Positions 2,385-34,586 of a stretch of 64,000 nt of DNA are shown piece by piece. The notes under the pieces are model-generated. The model had not been told where the DNA came from and did not search any database. It saw only the letters and a program-made list of their open reading frames with translations. Position 1 is the stretch's first letter. Each line of letters starts with the position of its first letter. Location of the stretch: positions 32,001 to 96,000 of IMG/VR virus record IMGVR_UViG_3300036774_000066. One strand, 5' to 3'. The stretch is from a virus. A program made the position numbers and the translations under genes.

Positions 2385-2681
2385 TCAATAGCTTCCTGTC
2401 AATCTACGAAAAAGATCAACGTCCTTTGGTCTTGACTTGACCTTCAAAGTAAAAGACTCCCCTCCTAAACTCACTTGGTCAAACGTAACCATTTCCCCGT
2501 TATGCATCTTGAATGTATCTCGATAATTACTCACACTTCCAGCAGAGACAAGTATCTTTCTTCCTGAAGGGTCAAGTGTTCTTCTCATTGCAGAATGTTC
2601 CGTAACATCAGGAAATATGAAAAGGTCTTCCGGCGCATTCTCCGAGTCCTTAAAAACAATGTATTTCATGTCAACCTCCAA
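2385..2681 (-). CDS. hypothetical phage protein
   Basis: MKYIVF...IFPDVTEH...VSAG...GESFTLKVKSR pattern recalled from small phage proteins. Confidence 0.55.
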   Translation of the reverse strand: MEVDMKYIVFKDSENAPEDLFIFPDVTEHSAMRRTLDPSGRKILVSAGSVSNYRDTFKMHNGEMVTFDQVSLGGESFTLKVKSRPKDVDLFRRLTGSY

Positions 2682-3071
2682 TCAAAATACCCTTGCCTCT
2701 GCACTATTTGGAGACACAGCCGTTTGCTTCTTTCTTCGCATCTTTACAACTTTTAGACCATACTCTTCGGCTATGTTATTCATCAGGGTTTTCAGGTCTT
2801 CCACTTTATTCGGGTCTTTCGACCAATGCCCCGCATGTCCCAACACATACGCTGTATTCCCACCAACCAAAAGCATTCGGTATCCGTCTGCATGATGAGA
2901 TTCTATTGCTGTTGCTGCATTGCAATGATTCCCCGAAGATATATCTACTGGTCTTCCTCGTGTCGTCTGTAAATGCAAGACTGCCTCGTATACCTTCTTT
3001 CCAAACTCCGGGTCATCTCGGATCAGGTGCAAGGCATCATTCAAAACCAGCAACGTAGAGTTGAATCCCAT
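2682..3071 (-). CDS. hypothetical phage protein
   Basis: ORF in operon; MGFNSTLLVLNDALH...HHAD...VGGN. Confidence 0.6.
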   Translation of the reverse strand: MGFNSTLLVLNDALHLIRDDPEFGKKVYEAVLHLQTTRGRPVDISSGNHCNAATAIESHHADGYRMLLVGGNTAYVLGHAGHWSKDPNKVEDLKTLMNNIAEEYGLKVVKMRRKKQTAVSPNSAEARVF

Positions 3072-3440: not shown

Positions 3441-3870
3441 CCTCGTAGTCTATTGACATACAAAAAGCCGCAAACTGTTCCCACCACTCCCCATAAGGCA
3501 TCTTCTCGGGAAAACGCTCTGGAGTCTTTTTCTGCTCGGCCTTCCAGTAATGCACAAACCGCATCAAGTCATCCTGCTCACCCTCTATGAATTTCCCCAA
3601 ATCAATCTCATTCTCCTCCGGTGGACTCTCCGATTGTGTCCACTCATTCCACGCCAATATCGCTGCTACCTCAGACGTTGTTCCAGTTTCAGGACCAGAC
3701 CAGCAATGCCTTTTGTCACATCCGCACACGTAAACACCCTCACTGTACTCCTGCACACTGGCAGAACCACCACAGCGTTTACACCTCAGAATCTCGGGCG
3801 GCAGTGTATTCTTTGCTCTCATACTAATCTCGCTCGGTGAAACCATTCGGTTAATTGACCTGTCGGGCAT
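3376..3870 (-). CDS. Lar-like zinc finger fused to acidic domain
   Basis: CKRCGG...CGC...C...AAILAWNE. Confidence 0.45.
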   Translation of the reverse strand: MPDRSINRMVSPSEISMRAKNTLPPEILRCKRCGGSASVQEYSEGVYVCGCDKRHCWSGPETGTTSEVAAILAWNEWTQSESPPEENEIDLGKFIEGEQDDLMRFVHYWKAEQKKTPERFPEKMPYGEWWEQFAAFCMSIDYEDAFSEGEDCDKETDRQEEGIG

Positions 3871-3872
3871 AG

Positions 3873-4244
3873 TTATGCTCCTTCGGAGTACAGCAATTTA
3901 CACCTCTTCACATCCGCTTCCATTTCCTCTCGAATTATCTTCCTCGCTGCAACCAACCCATCAAATACTTTTTCTTCTTTACTTAAATTCTCAATCGCAA
4001 TGTTGATCCTGTTAATGATCCTTCCAAGACAAGACCAAGGAACAAACTCTTCCTTCTTGTCAGGAATTTCTTGGGCTTGTGTGTTCTTGTCCAACGCCTC
4101 TGTCAAAGTCTGAATTGAACTCACCAAACAGTCAAGATGACGTGACGCATTTTCACCAAAATGTATCTCTGTTGAATCAGCCATTGTGGTTCTCCTTAGA
4201 CAACAAGTTGGACTTCTCCTCTGTAAACTCCACCTCTTCGGCAT
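3873..4244 (-). CDS. hypothetical protein (probable start MADS near 4184)
   Basis: ORF in operon; AGGAG RBS before internal ATG. Confidence 0.5.
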   Translation of the reverse strand: MPKRWSLQRRSPTCCLRRTTMADSTEIHFGENASRHLDCLVSSIQTLTEALDKNTQAQEIPDKKEEFVPWSCLGRIINRINIAIENLSKEEKVFDGLVAARKIIREEMEADVKRCKLLYSEGA

Positions 4245-4383
4245 TACCCTTCCATCTCTTCACGGGTGCTTGATGTTTAAGAAAACTTGCAGGAATACCA
4301 ACGGCAAGGGCAACCCTGTCTGCCATCTGGTTAATAATCCTGTCAAAGTCGATATTCCCGTATGTCATCCACACATTCAGCAT
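4177..4383 (-). CDS. hypothetical protein
   Basis: ORF in operon, GGAGG RBS. Confidence 0.45.
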   Translation of the reverse strand: MLNVWMTYGNIDFDRIINQMADRVALAVGIPASFLKHQAPVKRWKGNAEEVEFTEEKSNLLSKENHNG

Positions 4384-4385
4384 AG

Positions 4386-4601
4386 TTACCCTCCCACATC
4401 CTCTATTTTCTCAGACTCAAGAAGTTCGTGGACCCCAACACCAATCTGCACCCCGCATTCAACCGCGTCCTCAATACACCCCTGAATCTCGTAGTAGTAT
4501 GACGTAAACTTCTTCACAAACCCCGTAGTATCATTCCACCTGTCAAACAAGTTCAAGGCGCGTCTCTTTGCAAAGTCTACTTCGCCTTTGGTGCAACCCA
4601 T
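4386..4601 (-). CDS. hypothetical protein
   Basis: ORF in operon, GGAGG RBS. Confidence 0.55.
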   Translation of the reverse strand: MGCTKGEVDFAKRRALNLFDRWNDTTGFVKKFTSYYYEIQGCIEDAVECGVQIGVGVHELLESEKIEDVGG

Positions 4602-4604
4602 AAA

Positions 4605-4820
4605 CTATTCCTCCACCTTATCCCATTCATCCGCGTCCATCAACGCCTTCATGACTGCCCTCTTGGTTTCTCTCCGGGCTTCATTGTATCCCTTTTCAAA
4701 GCAAAACTGCTGCTCTGAATGTAAACCACCAGTTCCAACTCTGGGTAACGTCCGTGGCTTCTTGACCTTCGCGTTCTTAATAATCCTGTAGATTTTCCTC
4801 ATGTCCTTGATTGTCACCAT
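4605..4820 (-). CDS. hypothetical protein
   Basis: ORF in operon, AGGAG RBS. Confidence 0.5.
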   Translation of the reverse strand: MVTIKDMRKIYRIIKNAKVKKPRTLPRVGTGGLHSEQQFCFEKGYNEARRETKRAVMKALMDADEWDKVEE

Positions 4821-5119
4821 AAGTCACTCCTCTTTACAAACTTCGCATTCATCTCCTCCCACACAGCTTTGCAGCAATCACATCCGTTCTTATCCGGTGC
4901 AAACTGGCACACAAACTTCGCCGGACAGTCTTGACACTTAACAGTATTTTCTTGTTTCTTCGGCTCTGATTTTTTCTTGCTCATACTATCTACTTCCTTT
5001 GGTTTTTCACACTCTCCACAGTTAATACAATGTAATATTCTCGGTGCCTTGACACACCAGATTCTATTTGCCATATTGAACAACCTCCTCACTTCCAAGC
5101 AATAACAAGATGTCCACAC
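4814..5119 (-). CDS. hypothetical Cys-rich protein (start uncertain)
   Basis: multiple CxxC motifs. Confidence 0.4.
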   Translation of the reverse strand: MWTSCYCLEVRRLFNMANRIWCVKAPRILHCINCGECEKPKEVDSMSKKKSEPKKQENTVKCQDCPAKFVCQFAPDKNGCDCCKAVWEEMNAKFVKRSDLW

Positions 5120-5240
5120 AAAACAAGTTTACAAACAATAAAACAGACTACCCACACCGGAATAAACGTCAGACAAAACACCTTAAATTGTCTTCTTCGC
5201 TCGTATTTCTCCCATGCTGCCCAACGGACTCTTAGCATAG

Positions 5241-5648
5241 TTAATCCTCACACAAAGGAAACATGCCTAAGTGCAGATTCAGCTTTTCAAGATGTTCTTT
5301 CAACTCCACCATACTTTTCTTCCCAAACCCAAAATTAAAACGACGTAAATCCCATTCTGTGTGTCTTACCAAATCAAAATACGTGACAATTCCAAGGTTG
5401 TGAAAAAGAACATAGTGTCTTACGCGCAATTCGTTAGTGTCTATCTTCTTTTTAAGCAACTCACACATATCAGACTTAATATCACACTCTGCAACCGTAG
5501 CATCATCTCTCGCCCTCTTTTCCTCCTCTACCAACCTATCAAACTCCTTCAAAGCAACTTGATACATAAAGCCCAAGACATCATCTGGAATAGTAGAATC
5601 TACTTTTCGTATCCGCACATAAGCATTAGCAATGTCGGACCTCTTCAT
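5241..5648 (-). CDS. RNA polymerase alpha-subunit C-terminal-domain (alpha-CTD)-like protein
   Basis: KIDTNELRVRHYVLFHNLGIVTYFDLVRHTEWDLRRFNFGFGKKSMVELKEHLEKLNLHLGM aligns by eye with RpoA CTD (IDELELSVRS.NCL...I..IGDLV...E.ELLK..NFG.KSL.EIK..L...GL.LGM). Confidence 0.75.
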   Translation of the reverse strand: MKRSDIANAYVRIRKVDSTIPDDVLGFMYQVALKEFDRLVEEEKRARDDATVAECDIKSDMCELLKKKIDTNELRVRHYVLFHNLGIVTYFDLVRHTEWDLRRFNFGFGKKSMVELKEHLEKLNLHLGMFPLCED

Positions 5649-15885: not shown

Positions 15886-16701
15886 CTACTTTCCTATTAC
15901 CACTCCACCGGGCTGTCCATCAATAATGGTAAAGGAAACACCAGTATTCTTTGCAGCAATGTCCTTGTACGTATCATACTTCTTGAAAAGCATGTACTCA
16001 GGGTTACGCCGCAATGCCTTTCCAAGTGAGTCAATCGTGGCTACTTGCGCCAATGATGCCTGCTTCGCATTCTCCGCTGCCCAAACAGTTTCATCCTGCT
16101 TGATATTGGAGAACTTCGCATTCTGCATAAGCAACGGCACCCCGGACGCTTTGAACGATTCAATTGCCATTGCAGACCCTTTTGTGCTCGCCCCGTCCAT
16201 GTCTACAACAACAGAATTGTAATCAGGATACTTACTAAGAACAGACCGAACACCTGACCGAATATCCATCTTGGCAAACTGAGTGTAGATAGCGTCAATC
16301 GTTATCACCGACACACGATCCATACTGGTAGACTTTGGAGTCATCTGTGCAAAAACCGCATTGCGTGTGTCAAGGTCAGCAGCTACCGCGCACCTAACAT
16401 AAAAATCAACAGTACACGGTGTCTTATTGATTATCACCCGGTCATCCTCCCCGTTCCCTCCATCCTTCCCAAAATGTTCCTTGATAGCAACTGACGTAGC
16501 CTCAAGTATAACAAGTACGTTCTTTGTTCCGTTAGGATTACCTGTCCCAATGTCAACCATGCCCGCCTCACGAACTCCCTTTTCCCACCCTGTCGGAGTA
16601 AGAATCTTTCCGACATATCCAGCAGGAATTTGCCGATACTCTTCACATCCGAGAAACACAAACGCCATCAGGCAAACCAAACCAACCAATCCGTACCTCA
16701 T
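15886..16701 (-). CDS. SPFH/band-7 domain lipoprotein
   Basis: signal/lipobox FLGC, IPAGYVGKIL, IRSGVRSVLSKY, C-terminal helical segment; typical phage SPFH layout. Confidence 0.65.
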   Translation of the reverse strand: MRYGLVGLVCLMAFVFLGCEEYRQIPAGYVGKILTPTGWEKGVREAGMVDIGTGNPNGTKNVLVILEATSVAIKEHFGKDGGNGEDDRVIINKTPCTVDFYVRCAVAADLDTRNAVFAQMTPKSTSMDRVSVITIDAIYTQFAKMDIRSGVRSVLSKYPDYNSVVVDMDGASTKGSAMAIESFKASGVPLLMQNAKFSNIKQDETVWAAENAKQASLAQVATIDSLGKALRRNPEYMLFKKYDTYKDIAAKNTGVSFTIIDGQPGGVVIGK

Positions 16702-17051
16702 TTCGCCTCCCCTTTGTTAGAGTTAGTAGAATTAAGAATACGTTGCTCATACGCCTTTTGCTGATCCAATACCTGACTCCGATCAATCACACCACGCGGA
16801 GTAGCATTGACGGACAGGGAAGACAGCAGGAACAAGGCGTAACCCACCCATGCAAGCCCGGCAATTGTCCACGCTACCCTCTTGACAAGTGCCTTGACCT
16901 TCATTTCATGCAATTCGTCATTGTCACCTTCGCCAAACAAGAACAACCGCCAGGAAAACCTACACACAACGGTCACAGCAACAAACAAGACAATCAACGC
17001 TATGACTAATCGCAATAGTGATGGACCATAGATTCTTAGCAGGTCAACCAT
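16698..17051 (-). CDS. membrane protein (2 TM segments)
   Basis: two hydrophobic helices; AGGAGG RBS at 17059-17064. Confidence 0.65.
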   Translation of the reverse strand: MVDLLRIYGPSLLRLVIALIVLFVAVTVVCRFSWRLFLFGEGDNDELHEMKVKALVKRVAWTIAGLAWVGYALFLLSSLSVNATPRGVIDRSQVLDQQKAYEQRILNSTNSNKGEAK

Positions 17052-17070
17052 TAAGAAACCTCCTTTGAAA

Positions 17071-17871
17071 AATGCGAAACAAAGCTACACTATACTTCAC
17101 CAAAACACCACGGCACAGGCTCCAACACCACCGCAACACCACCCAACGGTACGTTACTCTACCGTCACTCGACATAACGATTCCCAACTCAACCTCACCG
17201 CCGCAAGACAGAACCAAACTTCACCGAAACACTGCGGCACGGAACCAAACCCTACCACAACCGCGCCCTACTGAACATGACGCTACCGTCAAGGAACTTG
17301 ACCGCACAATACGTCACCACAACCAGACGTTAGCATACCGGACAAAACCCAACCCTACCATCACATCATGGCACGACACGATACCTCCACAGAACATAAC
17401 TTCACCACTACGCCACGAGACAATACTCTACCGTCACCCATCGGCACGATACTATACCAAAACGTGACTGCACCTTACCAAGACAAGACGTAACGGCACT
17501 ACACCTTACCACGACAGGACGTGATAGAACGTCACGTCACCTCACCAAGACACTATCTCACCTGACCGAACCAAGACGTTAGGATACCTCACTGCGCAAT
17601 ACTTAACCGTCCCCCAACATAACGATTCCAAACCCGACCTCACCGGAACACTACGCGACTGCACCCAACTCCACCACGACAATACCTCACCCTACCCCAC
17701 GTAACGATACCGTGACCAAACATCTCCCGACATTACAACACCAGAACATCACACTACGTCAAGGCACTCCACTTTACCACCACCAGAAAACACATAATGA
17801 AACGTAACCTCACCGAAACCGAAACCGGACCGCACTGTACCTAACCAATACAAACATTACCATTACGTTAT
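17071..17871 (-). ncRNA. 5-nt-periodic (GT-NNN)n array, candidate multi-guide RNA precursor for the adjacent RAMP protein (VIPR-like)
   Basis: hand parse gives ~153 units, ~133 ending AC on + (GT on gene strand); 27 six-nt units, all CNNNNN on +, divide it into blocks; no minus-strand ORF >=60 aa; begins right at the RAMP stop codon. Confidence 0.8.
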
Positions 17872-18546
17872 CTACTCAACCTTTGTCAAGGTATAGTCAA
17901 ACTTCCCATAGATACCAGAATTATGCCACTGACCAAAACCCTTGACATCGCGTGAATAGTCAAAAAGAAGACGCAGAATTTCCTCCGTTGCACAAAACTT
18001 CGGAATCTCATAGCAAGTAACCTGACACTCAAAAAAAGCACCCGCTTCAATCATCTCACTCCGAGCCAAGGAAACTCGTGGACCTTGCTTAGTCATAGCA
18101 CGAAGAGGACGCTCCAAAAATCCGATAGGTTTATCTGTAATCAAACGGATTCTGTGAGGATTGACAGCAACAGACTTGTCAATATTGGAGCGAAAGTTAG
18201 AAAGAGTCTCGTCAACCTCTTCTTCCTTCTTCATTTTCTTCTTGCCCGTAACAAAACCATTTAATGCCTCCGCTGACGCTTTCAAAACCCCCTTGACAAC
18301 ATAGCTGTAAAGAATGGGCATACCGTCAGTATCTCGATGAAAAACCGTTGTACCTTTCTCAACCTCTTCAGGGAGAGTACCCGTTTCTTCGATAATCGCA
18401 CTCGCCAAGGCAGGATTTTTCTCGATTGCCTTCTTCGTCAAGAACTCACTCGCCGGAGTATCCTTACCAGGAAGACTCCCCAAGATCGGCTCTACAAACA
18501 TCACTTTCAAATTGTACACACTACGGGCAAGAACAAGACCAGACAT
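17872..18546 (-). CDS. stand-alone Cas7/Csm3-like RAMP protein (Vipr-like)
   Basis: YNLKVMFVEPILGS (RAMP beta1), HRDTDGMPILYSYVVKGVLK (cf. Csm3 P.IPGSSLKG), SEMIEAGAFF (cf. E.VPAG..F), C-terminal Gly-rich loop KGFGQWHNSGIYGKF. Confidence 0.8.
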   Translation of the reverse strand: MSGLVLARSVYNLKVMFVEPILGSLPGKDTPASEFLTKKAIEKNPALASAIIEETGTLPEEVEKGTTVFHRDTDGMPILYSYVVKGVLKASAEALNGFVTGKKKMKKEEEVDETLSNFRSNIDKSVAVNPHRIRLITDKPIGFLERPLRAMTKQGPRVSLARSEMIEAGAFFECQVTCYEIPKFCATEEILRLLFDYSRDVKGFGQWHNSGIYGKFDYTLTKVE

Positions 18547-20146: not shown

Positions 20147-23100
20147 CTACACGATCCAGAGTCTCCCGAAATGCTCCTCTTTGCCTTCCTTGTCATCATA
20201 TTTAATCCCGTCGAACCACCGCAAACCGTAGTAATCCGTGCCTTCCCCGTCATCTTTACTTAGCATAATACTAAATGGCAATTGTGTAAACTTATCAGGT
20301 GGACCGTCAAGATTGATTAAGTCCCAAGGAATCTCTACGGAATAGGTAGTAACATAACTGTCCTTTTCACGGGTTATCAACCCTGTAAACTTGGACCCCT
20401 TTGAACTATACTCCCCAACAGGGTAATCCTTCTCGTTTGCCGTCTTGCAAAGACCCATAATCATCTGTCCATCATCAGAACGTAAGGCCATACCAATCAC
20501 CGCCGCCTTCCCACCAGGACTCATTACACCAATCTTCAATCCATCCTCACAATGTATCCGGTCCATTGTCCTCTGAAAAGCCCGGTGTATAGGGTGAACT
20601 GCAATCACCTTTACAATTAAGAATTTGTCATTGTACCACGCCCTCCATGCTGCTCTCAAAGTATGCTGAATATCCTCTGCCTTCTTCTTCAAAGTCTCAG
20701 GAAATACAGCGTAAGGAAATTCACCCATACTATACAAAGGAGAAGGCTCCCTCGAAGCACAAGCAAAACTCGCCATGAGGCTTCTCTTGATCGAAATATT
20801 ATCATCCGGTGAAGAAACATCAACAGAAATTTCACCTACTGTAAAATTGACAACACCAAAAGGTATGCTGACAATGTGAGTCTCGTGTCCACCAAAAAAT
20901 TCTTGTCTGTTAATAAGAAACCCATTCCCAGACAACGCTATGTTAATAGTCCTTGTATGATTCGCGTTACTGGCAATAGTAACAACTACCTCTTTCCCAT
21001 TTTGTATAGAAAGTTCTATCTTTCTTACCTCTAACAATTCTCCTACGTGAACAGGTACACACATCCATCCTATTCCGTTATGTAAAACAACAGAGTAATC
21101 TCCAGCAACCGTTCCTTCACGGGTAACAACTTCTATCCAACTATCCTTCAAAGTAACTTCGAGTTCTCTTCTTAATACCGACCAACCCTTCCCTATAACG
21201 GTAGAAAATTTTTGTCCTGCTGCCTGTGGTGGAATAGCTATCGAAGGCTGTACCTCTCCATCACAAAATCTCTTGTCTACCTCTTCCTCCCAAGTCAACT
21301 TACTGTTCCATCCAAAAATCCTTGTTGCAATACCGTGTGAATCTTTCCAAATCTGAATACCAGAAAAAGGACTCAGCCATACAGTACGAGATAAACTCCA
21401 ACCTTTCAAAGGGAAATTCACCAATCCAATCAATTCCTGCACGTCAACCAACTCAAAGGGTGTATGCCACTGGTAAAAATCCACATCTTCCAAAGCAATT
21501 CTCTCGCTCAATTCCCTCGGAGTACCTAAGTCAAAAATGGCAGAAACTACCATGCAAGAATTTAAGTCATTCCCACTCTTTGACCAATCAAGCAACTCTA
21601 CATCTCTGTCTCCACTGCCAGACAATCCTAACTTCCTTCCCGTAATAGAGTTTTCCCAAAGTAAACCAACATCAGACGAGTTCTCTAAATAAATCAACAC
21701 TGCCTTTCCATGATTCCAAAAAACATTATTATCACTCCAATTATCCTCACAGCGGGGCATTTCTGGCATTCGAGAAATCCCACCCTTACTGTTATTCACG
21801 AAGAAATTGTTGTAGATTTTATTGCCAGAAGTAGTAGTGTGGACACCAAGATACTTATACCTATGAAGTAAAGCACGTATCTTTACCCCGTACTGTGTTC
21901 CCTTTACAAAATTGCGAAAGAAGTGAGCATTGTTTCCATCATGTGTGTAAAATCCACACTCAGCAGCATCGCTTCCCTCTCTGGTATCAATGATTGTATT
22001 ACTGTCAATCATGACAGGACCATCAGACATTTCATGGAAAATGCCGTATGGCTTGCTGTCAACTATTAAGTTCTGTGTGATCCTGTCTCTTGCACAATCC
22101 CCATCCAGCCATATACCATAACAACACCGCTCAATCTTGTTTTTCTTTATCAAGCTATCATCAACAGCATGAAACTTAATACCACACTCCTCACACGTAC
22201 CTACCACCCCAGGCTTTATACAATTGTCAACAATTTCATTATACTCAATACCTAAGTCATGCGAATAAAATGCCACAATGCCCGAGATTCCATTATCATG
22301 AATCTTGTTTCCTCTCACCGTATGAAATCCCCCCACGGAATGTTCTTTTATCCACTTCACAAAGGCATATATGTAAGGCTCCCCGTACTCTCCCAAATCA
22401 AGCATAGATATATCTTTATTTACAATGGGAATATTCATCGCACTCTTCGCAAATCCACCCATTCCCAAATTAAGTCCTTGTGCATTACCGTAAGATATTT
22501 CACAGTTTTCAATGGTAAAGTTAGCTCCTGCGTTCACATCAACTACGGACAACTGATTGACAGAATGCCACGTCGGTCCTGCCCAAATCGGGGCACAGCC
22601 GCCAACAAACCTAATTCCAGAAACCTTGATATTTTCCAAGCCCCTGACAATAGGCACAAAACACTGCTGCCTTACTGACCTTTCAACTTTACACCTACCC
22701 GGATGATCTGGTAAACAAACATAAATGCGAGAATTATCTTCATCCACCCACATTGAGTACAGACACAACTTCTCCTTCTCTTTTACTTCTGTCAACAAAA
22801 CACTGTTGACAAAAATCTGCTCACATCCCACATTCGGAGTAATACGTACATAGTAGATATTACTTTCATCACGAAACCACTCAGAACTCCATTCGTCCAT
22901 TGCGCACACTACCGGGGGAACTTCATCTTGTGCTGCCTCAATAGAAATTTCAGAACAATATGGCTTTATACACTCTCTGTAAACCCCTTCATGAATTATT
23001 ATCCTATCGCCAGGAAGAGCACTCTCCACAGCACACCGAACAGTCTTTACAGGTGACTGAAAAGAGCCGATGTTCTTATCGCTCCCTCGCATACTTGACA

Positions 23101-23266
23101 CATGAAAAGCAATAGAAGTATGCTTTTGTTTTGTTGCAGAGGCCCAAGCAGCATAGCCTCTAATCAATTCATCGTCAGAAGATTCAATCACAGAAGATAA
23201 ACTAAAGGAAGGATGGGCCTTCCCCTGTCCTATCAATGTCAACATTCTAAGATCGGGTGTTATCAT
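20147..23266 (-). CDS. right-handed parallel beta-helix (pectin-lyase-like, GH120/DUF1565-like N-terminus) protein with C-terminal CBM9-like domain
   Basis: GSDKNIGSFQSPVKT...ALPGDRIIIHEGVYRE; PbH1 repeats (GIKFH, GIWLD, GIFHE, NNFFVNN); C-terminal AWYNDKFL...YSVEIPW...PFSIMLSKDDG. Confidence 0.75.
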   Translation of the reverse strand: MITPDLRMLTLIGQGKAHPSFSLSSVIESSDDELIRGYAAWASATKQKHTSIAFHVSSMRGSDKNIGSFQSPVKTVRCAVESALPGDRIIIHEGVYRECIKPYCSEISIEAAQDEVPPVVCAMDEWSSEWFRDESNIYYVRITPNVGCEQIFVNSVLLTEVKEKEKLCLYSMWVDEDNSRIYVCLPDHPGRCKVERSVRQQCFVPIVRGLENIKVSGIRFVGGCAPIWAGPTWHSVNQLSVVDVNAGANFTIENCEISYGNAQGLNLGMGGFAKSAMNIPIVNKDISMLDLGEYGEPYIYAFVKWIKEHSVGGFHTVRGNKIHDNGISGIVAFYSHDLGIEYNEIVDNCIKPGVVGTCEECGIKFHAVDDSLIKKNKIERCCYGIWLDGDCARDRITQNLIVDSKPYGIFHEMSDGPVMIDSNTIIDTREGSDAAECGFYTHDGNNAHFFRNFVKGTQYGVKIRALLHRYKYLGVHTTTSGNKIYNNFFVNNSKGGISRMPEMPRCEDNWSDNNVFWNHGKAVLIYLENSSDVGLLWENSITGRKLGLSGSGDRDVELLDWSKSGNDLNSCMVVSAIFDLGTPRELSERIALEDVDFYQWHTPFELVDVQELIGLVNFPLKGWSLSRTVWLSPFSGIQIWKDSHGIATRIFGWNSKLTWEEEVDKRFCDGEVQPSIAIPPQAAGQKFSTVIGKGWSVLRRELEVTLKDSWIEVVTREGTVAGDYSVVLHNGIGWMCVPVHVGELLEVRKIELSIQNGKEVVVTIASNANHTRTINIALSGNGFLINRQEFFGGHETHIVSIPFGVVNFTVGEISVDVSSPDDNISIKRSLMASFACASREPSPLYSMGEFPYAVFPETLKKKAEDIQHTLRAAWRAWYNDKFLIVKVIAVHPIHRAFQRTMDRIHCEDGLKIGVMSPGGKAAVIGMALRSDDGQMIMGLCKTANEKDYPVGEYSSKGSKFTGLITREKDSYVTTYSVEIPWDLINLDGPPDKFTQLPFSIMLSKDDGEGTDYYGLRWFDGIKYDDKEGKEEHFGRLWIV

Positions 23267-31794: not shown

Positions 31795-34586
31795 AATCTC
31801 CCCAATTTCTTGACAATTGCTTTACGGGTGCATAACTCACAAAACCGTGAATCATTCTGCTCATAAACATCAAAGTAGGTATGATTATTACACCCGGCTA
31901 CAGCACAAACTCCCAAACCTTCCCTGAAATACTTAATACGCTGACAAGAAAACTTCGTATAGACATCGAGAAACTTAATCCCGGTCATCGAAGATAGAAA
32001 AACAAAGGGATTCAACTTATTAGGCAAAGAAACCACCAACTCCCCGGTTGTATAACTAAGAAAAATCTCAGGTATTTCTGGCATCAAAACAGGGCTACCC
32101 ACTATCAAGTGAAAATCTGCAAACTTTACGTTCTTAGGATATACAATCCTTCGGTCAAAGTTTCTTGCACTTTCTCTAATAGAAATAACATCAACAGCAT
32201 CAGAAGGCTTAATAACAAGCATCTGCCAATCCTCATACTTTACTCCACGATAACCAACATCCACATACTTCAAGTCTACCATACCTAACGTCTTTACTTC
32301 AGGTGCTACTCTTGTATATGCTGCCTTCACTTCGTCAAGACTTGAGTATTCATTTCTAAGTAACACTTCTACAAGAAAAACTCCCCAAGAGTAATCTGGA
32401 ATATTACCCTTTTTTATCCCGATGAAATAAGAACACCTTCCTATTTCCCGCGTGCTCAAGACATAGTTATCCGGCAATTCCCTCATTATTCTTGACCAAA
32501 GGTATCTGAAATTAGACGCAACATTCAAGTATGAATACTCCGGCTCTCTCCATAACTTCACCAGCAGTTTATTTTGCGCTTGTCCCATCTCATTGAATGA
32601 CAAAACATCATCAACAGTTGTAGAAACATCAAACTCCCTCTCTACCCGAGCCAATCTTTTCTCTGCTGTATCACAATACCCACAAGCTACACACTCTCCT
32701 TTAAGCTGTGCAGGAGTTGACAAACAATGATTGATCTGCTGAAACTGTCGGATACTTCTATTAACCCGTACAAGATACTCTTTGTTCCAATCAATAATAT
32801 CATCGGGAAAGATAAAATCATAAGGCTTTTCATCAAAAACATCCTGTAAATCAATCCCCGCTCTATCAAGTTTCTCAATCAAAACCTTTACCCCGGCACC
32901 GTCACAGTCCTTCTTGTACACCACCAAACTATGATTGATTGACATATCCACAAGGAAAGGGGTAAAGACCCTTCCTAAGTCAATCATCAACTGACTCACA
33001 AAATTAGTCCACGCCCTCGAAGAAAACCTTACCTGCATTCCCATTTCATCAACAAACATCCGCAGCATACCCTCAAACGCTCTCTCCTCTCTCAAAAACA
33101 TCAAGTAAGTATTCCTCTTCTCCCACGCCATCGGAGTATTCGTACAGTAAATCAGGTGAGTAAAAGAAACCTCAAACTTAATACCAGCAGTACGCAAACT
33201 CAAAGCATAATCCCGCATCTCTTGAATAAAAGATACAAACTCCTTTTTGTCTTCCTCTGTCTCTCTACCCGTATAAATGCAGTACAACTTCACACTTTGA
33301 AAATGATGGTCAATACATCTGCGAATAGCTACCTTAAATTCTTCAGTCGAAATATTCTTATTAAGGTAATGCCTCATTCTCTCTGATATACCCTCAAAAC
33401 CATAGGAGATACTTCTCATTCCCAACTTATTAGCAAGTGTAAAGTAATCAGAACGTGCTGCTATTATATCTGCCCTCATAGTCATAAACAGCACACGAGG
33501 ATAAATCTCAAGACCCAATTTCACAAGGTCAAGATACCGAGAATAGTAATTGTTATTGAAACTCAACCAGCCTATCGAATTACACATACCAAACTTACGG
33601 GAACTAATCAAGTCACTCCGAATACGCTCCAATGACTTTTCTCTCCATCCCCCAGAGATATTTCCCTCATGACAAAAGCTACAAGACCCTCCTGAACTGC
33701 ATCCCCAAGAGATAATCACGTCCATTCCATCATCAGCAGGTTCAATTGACGAATATATAATTTTTCTAACGTCTTTCGGACTTGAATCAAAAGACTCTTC
33801 TCTATGATACTTGACTTTATCAGGGGCATCATCAATTACCTTGTTTACTTTGCTAATTCTCCACCTGTCTTTGTACTCGTACTGATACGCAAGAGGATGC
33901 ACAAAGTTTTCAAATCGGAAAAACTTTCGCAGTCTCTCCTCTTTACTTGTGTAAGGCTCTAACAAAGTGTCAATTATCTTAGGAATTACACCCTCACCAT
34001 ACCCAATAAAAGCACCGTCAATCAATGCTGTTTCTTTCCCGTCCTCTGAACTTCCTAAAAATACGTCTACAAAATCAGCAGAGTTTCCACCAACAAAGAA
34101 AAAAGGAATCCGATCTTCCTTCATGCGCTGAGTGTGCCAAATAGGAATAGCCGAATGATGAAGCAACCACGGAAGATTCATCTTTTCAGGAAGAACTGAA
34201 TTAGAAATCAAAACTACATCGAAGTCGAGCACACTCCGATGAGAAGCCACACCATGCCACACAGGAAGTTTATGCTTTTCGTAAAGAGAGAAATTCTGCT
34301 TCTCCGGCATGAATGCTATATCAACATAAACCTGATCCCCCAGGTTTTGCTTTATCAAGCTAATCAAGATACCATCTGCTGACCCTTTACACTTGGACAA
34401 ACCCTTCATCATAAAAGCAAGTAACACTCGTATCCTTGCCTTATCGAAATTATCTGGATTGTCAAGGTTAGAATCATAAACAGAGATAATCCCAGGGTCA
34501 ACGAAAGTCTTAATGTTCTCCTCTAAAACTTTCTGTATATGCTCAGATGTATTTATTATTTCTCTGTCTGCTGACATTCTTGCCAT
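31791..34586 (-). CDS. large radical SAM protein (TIGR03960-like, B12-binding-type N-terminus)
   Basis: SVLDFDVVLIS, VGGN, GAFIGYGE, GCSSGGSCSFCHEG cluster motif, GFEGISERMR..LNK, TNTPMAW, CVACGYC. Confidence 0.75.
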   Translation of the reverse strand: MARMSADREIINTSEHIQKVLEENIKTFVDPGIISVYDSNLDNPDNFDKARIRVLLAFMMKGLSKCKGSADGILISLIKQNLGDQVYVDIAFMPEKQNFSLYEKHKLPVWHGVASHRSVLDFDVVLISNSVLPEKMNLPWLLHHSAIPIWHTQRMKEDRIPFFFVGGNSADFVDVFLGSSEDGKETALIDGAFIGYGEGVIPKIIDTLLEPYTSKEERLRKFFRFENFVHPLAYQYEYKDRWRISKVNKVIDDAPDKVKYHREESFDSSPKDVRKIIYSSIEPADDGMDVIISWGCSSGGSCSFCHEGNISGGWREKSLERIRSDLISSRKFGMCNSIGWLSFNNNYYSRYLDLVKLGLEIYPRVLFMTMRADIIAARSDYFTLANKLGMRSISYGFEGISERMRHYLNKNISTEEFKVAIRRCIDHHFQSVKLYCIYTGRETEEDKKEFVSFIQEMRDYALSLRTAGIKFEVSFTHLIYCTNTPMAWEKRNTYLMFLREERAFEGMLRMFVDEMGMQVRFSSRAWTNFVSQLMIDLGRVFTPFLVDMSINHSLVVYKKDCDGAGVKVLIEKLDRAGIDLQDVFDEKPYDFIFPDDIIDWNKEYLVRVNRSIRQFQQINHCLSTPAQLKGECVACGYCDTAEKRLARVEREFDVSTTVDDVLSFNEMGQAQNKLLVKLWREPEYSYLNVASNFRYLWSRIMRELPDNYVLSTREIGRCSYFIGIKKGNIPDYSWGVFLVEVLLRNEYSSLDEVKAAYTRVAPEVKTLGMVDLKYVDVGYRGVKYEDWQMLVIKPSDAVDVISIRESARNFDRRIVYPKNVKFADFHLIVGSPVLMPEIPEIFLSYTTGELVVSLPNKLNPFVFLSSMTGIKFLDVYTKFSCQRIKYFREGLGVCAVAGCNNHTYFDVYEQNDSRFCELCTRKAIVKKLGRL

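Follow-up and report, generated by a model that had tools for sequence, protein, structure and literature searches.

The window analysed here is a 64,000-nucleotide stretch (positions 32,001 to 96,000) of the 156.6-kb IMG/VR virus record IMGVR_UViG_3300036774_000066, which is 93% complete. On its minus strand, a gene for a small protein predicted to be Cas7-like is followed, 6 nt past the stop codon, by an array of about 770 bases that falls into some 25 short blocks of pentanucleotide repeats, and then by a short hydrophobic ORF. In gene order, and in window coordinates, the features of the region are:

17872..18546, minus strand: vipr-like gene for a 224-aa stand-alone RAMP, predicted to be of Cas7 type, with the C-terminal G-loop GFGQWHNSGIYG (ORF, AF2 model, Foldseek)
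17920..17948, minus strand: weak sigma-70-like site within the 3′ end of the vipr gene (9/12 matches)
17101..17866, minus strand: vrRNA-type array of G-T-N-N-N pentamers (lag-5 periodicity, HMM parse, no gene-strand ORF)
17101..17820, minus strand: 25 one-base punctuation marks, each an extra G that gives GGT (spacing 21, 26, 31, 36 or 41 nt, once 6 nt)
17742..17778, minus strand: block whose contiguous variable triplets read AAAGGAGCCGACAGTGATTCT (exact 21/21 metagenome match)
17066..17100, minus strand: last array block, which extends into the next gene's ribosome-binding site (HMM parse; AAGGAGG, then ATG at 17051)
16698..17051, minus strand: 117-aa hydrophobic ORF, co-oriented with the array and 3′ of it (no family match)

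The names vipr and vrRNA come from VIPR (Viral Interference Programmable Repeat), which the available text of a preprint describes as a phage-borne ancestral RAMP (Vipr) together with vrRNAs of pentamer repeats (10.64898/2026.04.26.720920). The locus shares with VIPR its viral context and a non-coding pentanucleotide array that adjoins the gene and combines fixed with hypervariable positions.

The five-base period is apparent from the autocorrelation of 17101-17866, which is 0.47 at lag 5 as against about 0.25 at neighbouring lags, and which at longer range peaks at lags of the form 5n+1 (0.41-0.49 at lags 21, 26, 31 and 36). The array was parsed on the minus strand with a five-phase Viterbi, or phase-tracking, HMM in which +1 and -1 shifts carried equal penalties, and the extra base of each junction was placed just 5′ of the G in G-T. 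This parse called 25 insertions and no deletions, every shift being +1, at positions 17101, 17132, 17163, 17199, 17225, 17256, 17287, 17318, 17359, 17385, 17406, 17432, 17458, 17479, 17510, 17546, 17572, 17608, 17644, 17675, 17711, 17742, 17778, 17814 and 17820. The extra base is G at all 25 junctions, compared with 26% G at the equivalent position of ordinary pentamers (0.26^25 = 2e-15), and the punctuated array is a real feature, far beyond chance. Between the junctions lie 24 blocks (139 pentamers), with a 12-unit 5′ run before them and the last block after them. Blocks are 4-8 pentamers long and the spacing is 5n+1 at 24 of the 25 junctions, the exception being at 17820/17814, where a block of one unit repeats a 6-nt unit in tandem (gene strand: GGTTTC). 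A sequence-only reading of the window had listed 27 junctions, with 5n+1 spacing through 17814 and blocks of the form G(GTNNN)4-8. Its spacing and block lengths were reproduced by the HMM, as were its first 25 positions (17101-17820) at their exact coordinates, whereas 17846 and 17861 were not called, and the 5′ stretch around these two parses equally well as a single in-phase run with degenerate units.

Inside the blocks, G-Y (mostly G-T) is retained in 124 of the 139 units and N-N-N is variable. GGT is confined to block starts, and the internal units are N-G-T/NN, so that the repeat departs from the canonical GGY/NN. The bases around the junction follow rules of their own: both bases after GGT are purines in 17 of 24 first units versus 24 of 92 internal units (p = 8.5e-5), in agreement with the purine pair of the earlier reading. 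A second element of that reading, a pyrimidine before GGT, is found at 24 of 25 junctions and G is avoided there (0/25 junctions vs 26/92 internal positions, p = 0.001), but it partly reflects composition, A being rare at that position throughout the array, and in the wider family the base before GG is lineage-specific (A in 18/20 in one related array, L039). Some blocks resemble each other, forming guide families within 17161-17645 (minus strand); for instance, the blocks at 17644 and 17199 share GTGAG ... GAATC GTTAT, and GTGCC is the third unit in several blocks of the window.

No ORF spans the array on the gene strand, the overlapping ORFs being short and lying in other frames or on the plus strand; with a period of 5 rather than 3, this rules out a coding or recoded gene. 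An Rfam search of the array returned no family, hammerhead included, and RNA folding of the whole array was unremarkable (z = -2.2), with no per-block hairpin. Direct repeats of CRISPR type (23-50 nt, alternating with spacers) are absent, as TRF and the parse show only the 5-nt period.

Pfam and PHROG searches of the 224-aa protein gave no match, and no close relative turned up in IMG/VR when this protein alone was the query. Its structure is more informative. The AF2 model (pLDDT 83.7) has as its top Foldseek matches in the PDB type VII Cas7, Csm3 (type III) and Cas7-11 (E ~1e-8, prob 1.0); a profile match in the PDB is also to a Cas7 (8yhd, E 6e-4), and the top match in BFVD is a siphovirus ‘Cas system-associated RAMP superfamily protein’ (E 8e-19). 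A homotrimer was predicted with an ipSAE of 0.64, the best of three controls reaching 0.00; among proteins of solved structure, 20 of 30 one-chain pairs and 1 of 23 single chains reach this mark. The trimer runs had at least 40% of their contacts in common, with a partner pLDDT of at least 72, and the contacts are head to tail, one surface of each copy meeting the opposite surface of the next in a filament-like manner. The trimer pass may come from likeness to solved Cas7 backbones. Taken together, the neighbour protein is predicted to be a Cas7-like RAMP that polymerises head to tail, and it corresponds to the small stand-alone RAMP of VIPR (~20 kDa, with RRM core, G-loop and thumb).

Relatives of this protein allow the array to be compared across phages. 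A profile scan of IMG/VR recovered 211 relatives, and the family is large, with 220 matches in one search and, in an exhaustive one, 1,188 clusters at 50% identity. Loci of relatives were fetched for comparison and carry L-numbers (L095 is a JGI contig); in nearly all of 80 such loci a 5-periodic array lies flush with the gene, mostly downstream and, in one gut-phage group, upstream. The same HMM, run over 33 arrays (the window included), called 637 insertions against 55 deletions. In 28 arrays with 504 blocks, blocks of 5 and 6 units are the commonest, and the extra base is G in 442 blocks (88%), A in 41, T in 18 and C in 3, the background frequency of G being 0.2-0.35; in single arrays, G accounts for 62/64 (L025), 21/21 (L022), 21/21 (L065) and 16/16 (L072). 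One array, L047, is aberrant in appearance because G-C reads the same on both strands, and on the gene strand it again has G before G-C. A purine after GGY, mostly A, is general: the first variable base is A in 61% of first units versus 37% internally. Homologous arrays thus carry the same junction, G before G-Y, beside proteins that are only 31-44% identical, and the phase shifts are not of the random, unconserved kind that would have spoken against the sequence-only reading. The recurrence of +1 shifts with the same junction in distant arrays makes them a family trait rather than slippage noise, and it is supported that they are conserved, selected punctuation. Some lineages (L010, L012, L027) have A beside or in place of G as the extra base, and given these lineages a phase shift combined with a purine, not GG itself, may be the signal.

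Two groups of relatives deserve separate description. In L025, a 77-kb IMG/VR phage, two arrays (2050-2880 and 3600-5250) flank the vipr-like gene and hold about 96 blocks in total, many of them five units long and starting with GGTAAA; with an extra G in 62/64 and 31/32 blocks, they are the cleanest example of the punctuation. The loci L044-L081 (about 25 contigs, from IMG/VR sample 3300045988 and relatives) belong to phages of ~40 kb whose nearest GenBank relatives come from human faeces, and their arrays (~2450-3000) lie upstream of the gene. The same last two blocks stand beside the ribosome-binding site in all of these arrays, and the inner blocks turn over like cassettes.

Several observations bear on the blocks as units. 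In the window, all first units (24/24) are intact and G-T is lost in only 2/70 of the first three units, while the fourth unit lacks G-T in 8/21 cases versus 11/109 among other units (p = 0.003); kinship of duplicated blocks may inflate this fourth-unit effect, or it may reflect structural tolerance. Family-wide, terminal units are better kept than middle units. Blocks are also gained and lost whole: L073 carries a 31-nt block that L070 lacks, three blocks of L044 correspond to two in L045, and block 5 of L005 is present twice, as a tandem duplication of the whole block. One block family was found in six gut-phage arrays with differing neighbours, and at least one neighbour is unrelated in 43 of 124 homologous block pairs. 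The ends of inter-array homology segments tend to fall at junctions, in a set of 26 segments that are non-independent. These comparisons support blocks acting as evolutionary modules that are gained, lost and reshuffled whole between related phages. Whether they are functional units as well is answered in the affirmative by three indirect lines, namely (i) G-Y conservation by position, (ii) whole-block evolution and (iii) the homotrimer prediction.

The wider neighbourhood is less conserved. Among 81 loci, no neighbour family besides vipr is conserved, and no accessory vap gene was found at the window locus; the 117-aa ORF, which has no family match, is not recognisable as one. No DNA-binding or nuclease match was found among the neighbour genes in the window, nor any match to Cas or other RAMP families among neighbours up to 3.5 kb on either side of the vipr gene. 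With no conserved neighbour except vipr, protein and array make up the whole conserved system. The sigma-70-like site at 17920..17948 could be the start of array transcription, as judged from its sequence, in a region in which the count of such sites is not above shuffle expectation. Two further genes of the minus strand can be described. The 1039-aa protein at 20147-23266 has a right-handed beta-helix (Beta_helix/NosD, E ~1e-15) and is probably a tail fibre or depolymerase, and the 271-aa protein at 15886-16701, two genes downstream of the array, has an N-terminus of lipoprotein type and matches PHROG 200 (lipoprotein) weakly.

If the blocks are guides, their variable bases should be found in targets, and various collections were searched under several decoding rules. 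In the JGI metagenome collection, AAAGGAGCCGACAGTGATTCT, which decodes to a ribosome-binding site, a six-base spacer and GTG, has one match (21/21) on contig Ga0114918_10093183 (L095, 555-575), where it coincides with the ribosome-binding site and the first start codon (GTG) of a 346-aa TPR ORF. The match stays within one block, as the adjoining blocks of the window do not match its flanks. Chance expectation for a 21-mer in this collection is ~0.2 matches (an estimate) and about nine scans were run, so that the match is compatible with chance and only suggestive. L095 holds the only exact match for any decoded guide; it is a contig of 58% GC, and its TPR protein has a Cys-rich C-terminal end and belongs to a rare family known only from short contigs.

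Other searches returned nothing above chance. The decoded block 17778->17742 has 0 matches in IMG/VR, and so does the block 17711->17675 in contiguous and one-skip readings; the block 17359->17318, read contiguously, has 0 matches in viral, metagenome and genome collections. The best block matches within the phage's own 156-kb genome equal those of shuffled controls under six spacing rules. Across 80 loci and the own genome (0.63 Mb), matches at target periods 3-6 are no more frequent than with reversed-guide controls, the one 15/15 match being within chance. A guide of L028 that resembles a ribosome-binding site plus ATG has 0 matches, and a BLAST search of six decoded guides joined with N spacers against cultured phages gave no match. 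For the 9-unit guide of L019, read as ‘ab+N’, one independent match (three related contigs) was judged to be chance, with third bases at 2/9 and the unread base on codon position 1.

Statistics of the decoded guides give weak signals. In a lag analysis, the sole excess resembled adjacency and linked the final base of one unit to the opening base of the following one (z = 3.0); in-frame stop codons are slightly fewer than expected (51 vs ~69, 15 arrays); and 11 decoded guides resemble a ribosome-binding site plus start, as against 6.6 +/- 2.4 (p ~0.05). The decoded triplets have 50% GC in a phage of 43% GC, which suggests that the targets lie in genomes of a kind other than the phage's own. The 12-24 variable bases per block that the sequence-only reading proposed presuppose that all three N are read. 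Information content makes this plausible and favours it: were only two bases read in each unit, a block of 4-5 units would hold little information, a 5-unit block specifying just 10 bases.

The interpretation of the locus relies on what has been established for canonical VIPR. In the cryo-EM structures of the phage SUSP1 system, one protomer is bound per repeat in a right-handed filament with five to six subunits per turn (10.64898/2026.04.26.720927). The available text of the first preprint gives GGY/NN as the canonical repeat, with NNNGG, YNNNG and NNNNG as alternatives, and speaks of ‘staggered arrays’ in which vrRNAs abut with a 1-nt offset (fig. S18); in the same text, sRNA-seq confirmed the ribozyme-interspersed and single-guide architectures only, not the staggered one (10.64898/2026.04.26.720920). 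Because G-T-N-N-N is Y-N-N-N-G in another phase, the window array belongs to a class named there, and its blocks likewise abut with a 1-nt offset and no tail, ribozyme or spacer between them. The region 17101-17866 is therefore probably the vrRNA guide array of a phage VIPR with non-canonical N-G-Y-N-N (= YNNNG) repeats in the ‘staggered’ layout, a doubled G separating the guides. Homology with the SUSP1 structures suggests that the 224-aa Cas7-like protein binds the transcript with one protomer per five bases, holds the fixed G-U and presents the variable bases to target DNA; the conserved G-Y within each unit is the part that such a protein would be expected to hold. Every 4-8 units the G is doubled (GGU), which would place the next G-U run one base out of phase, so that an in-register filament could not continue and each block would form a short ribonucleoprotein of its own, about one helical turn in length. 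The doubled G also restores the canonical GGY at the 5′ start of a block, where it probably seeds or caps the filament, and the junction may then be trimmed or cut. The sequence-only reading was right in its main point, that conserved one-base punctuation splits the array into guide-sized units bound by a predicted Cas7-like protein. The reading is thus supported in part, its further step, in which the extra G marks processing sites or filament boundaries, being a proposal.

Other explanations of the extra G differ in how much of this evidence they can accommodate. It is unlikely, yet the strongest competitor, that the array acts as one uncut scaffold in which the extra G forms a hinge or bulge in a continuous or beaded Vipr filament, the blocks remaining tethered and acting together, for instance on clustered sites. 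Such a scaffold would suit the lack of any ribozyme, hairpin or tail between blocks as well as the shortness of 4-5-unit blocks for independent specificity, and the available text of the VIPR preprint holds no RNA-end data for staggered arrays (10.64898/2026.04.26.720920). However, related phages differ by single blocks that have been gained, lost or reshuffled, which fits independent units better, block lengths of 4-8 units give no fixed structural period, and the sole candidate target (L095) matches a single block only.

The doubled G could instead be a scar of guide addition or duplication, a joining product at block borders that is tolerated and has no role in assembly or processing. Tandem duplication is indeed seen, in block 5 of L005 and in the 6-nt duplication at 17814-17820, and a conserved GGYA start could serve as recombination microhomology. 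A neutral scar would decay, though, whereas the junction is kept between arrays whose proteins are only ~31-44% identical, with G in 88% of 504 blocks and constraints of its own nearby (G avoided before GGY, a purine after it), which leaves this explanation improbable. Random replication slippage, with indels that mean nothing, has only the repetitive nature of the DNA in its favour; shifts that are +1 in 25 of 25 cases and all G at the same position of the unit (p ~2e-15), the family-wide surplus of insertions (637 vs 55) and the same motif in distant homologous arrays reduce its probability to almost nil.

A more specific proposal goes beyond the preferred reading of a staggered VIPR guide array and is put forward tentatively, as it is rather doubtful in its full form. 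N-G-Y VIPRs may read three contiguous bases per unit with none skipped, the doubled G ending one filament and seeding the next, so that an unstructured transcript of ~770 nt would become ~25 one-turn mini-guides (15-24 nt of specificity) without ribozyme, hairpin, tail or dedicated nuclease. Such guides would in many cases be aimed at the ribosome-binding-site and start-codon regions of a host or rival element of higher GC.

VIPR is only months old as a discovery (2026), and experiments have characterised only the canonical GGY/NN type. The present locus and its relatives (504 parsed blocks) add that the tail-less ‘staggered’ layout obeys a strict grammar, with G-Y in every five bases and the doubled G as a one-base full stop. 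The doubled G would be the most compact guide delimiter known, and the grammar amounts to a simple design rule for multiplexed guide arrays. The staggered concept is already contained in the supplement of the VIPR preprint; the locus is a well-documented new example rather than a new kind, and overturns nothing.

Among known systems, the closest is the staggered, YNNNG-type VIPR itself, which according to the legend and methods text of the preprint has the same stand-alone phage RAMP beside a pentamer array, the same fixed Y...G with three variable bases and the same 1-nt offset with neither tail nor spacer. The window locus differs in that no vap gene was found there, and the likeness covers what that legend and those methods state. 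A later survey describes non-canonical VIPR-like arrays of the WGT/NN type (fig. S10, 10.64898/2026.10.21.760802), which in its available text share the 5-nt entropy period, the fixed G-T, degeneracy at the first position and a neighbouring protein of Vipr-like fold. Those arrays differ in having repeats of ~10 units, and neither ‘staggered’ nor a second level of punctuation occurs in the searched text of that survey (10.64898/2026.10.21.760802).

The type II VIPR of SUSP1 is more distant. Its locus was found by its GGY repeats in KT454805.2 (~27.6-29.2 kb), with ALH47069.1 as Vipr, and the numbering of C173, D177, W178 and R179 fits the published one. Both systems have a RAMP of ~200 aa with a G-x-G-x-W-R G-loop, a protomer (in the window, by prediction) per 5-nt repeat and an array that adjoins the gene in a phage. 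In SUSP1, however, a guide consists of 9-16 GGY/NN units and ends in a conserved tail (a pseudoknot according to the preprints), and guides lie ~60-90 nt apart, whereas the window has N-G-U/NN, 4-8 units per guide, none of the tails of type II and guides one base apart. At the protein level, hhalign of the 43-sequence family alignment A1 with SUSP1 Vipr gave an alignment over 47 C-terminal columns only, those surrounding the G-loop (probability 36%, E 4e-4), and an HMM search of the SUSP1 genome with A1 gave no match. In SUSP1 Vipr, H17 and D177 read G1, R138 and W178 read G2, and the next protomer reads Y3 (10.64898/2026.04.26.720927). The G-loop is G-x-G-Q-W-R/H in the window's family and G-V-G-D177-W178-R179 in SUSP1; Q206 and W207 are invariant in A1, Q thus standing in place of D177, and the exchange of this G1 reader fits, but does not prove, the loss of the first G within blocks.

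Class 1 CRISPR systems (Csm3 of type III, Cas7 of type VII) provide the last comparison, and the sequence-only reading had called the extra G the functional equivalent of CRISPR repeats. This holds for its part as a delimiter and not beyond, there being no repeat handle, hairpin or tail: the window has none of the 25-40 nt direct repeats, the Cas6-type hairpin, the 8-nt tag or cas1/cas2, its period is 5 nt rather than 6 nt, and its delimiter is a single base. What the two would have in common is the predicted protein fold, a periodic grip on the RNA by thumb and G-loop, and many guides per array transcript.
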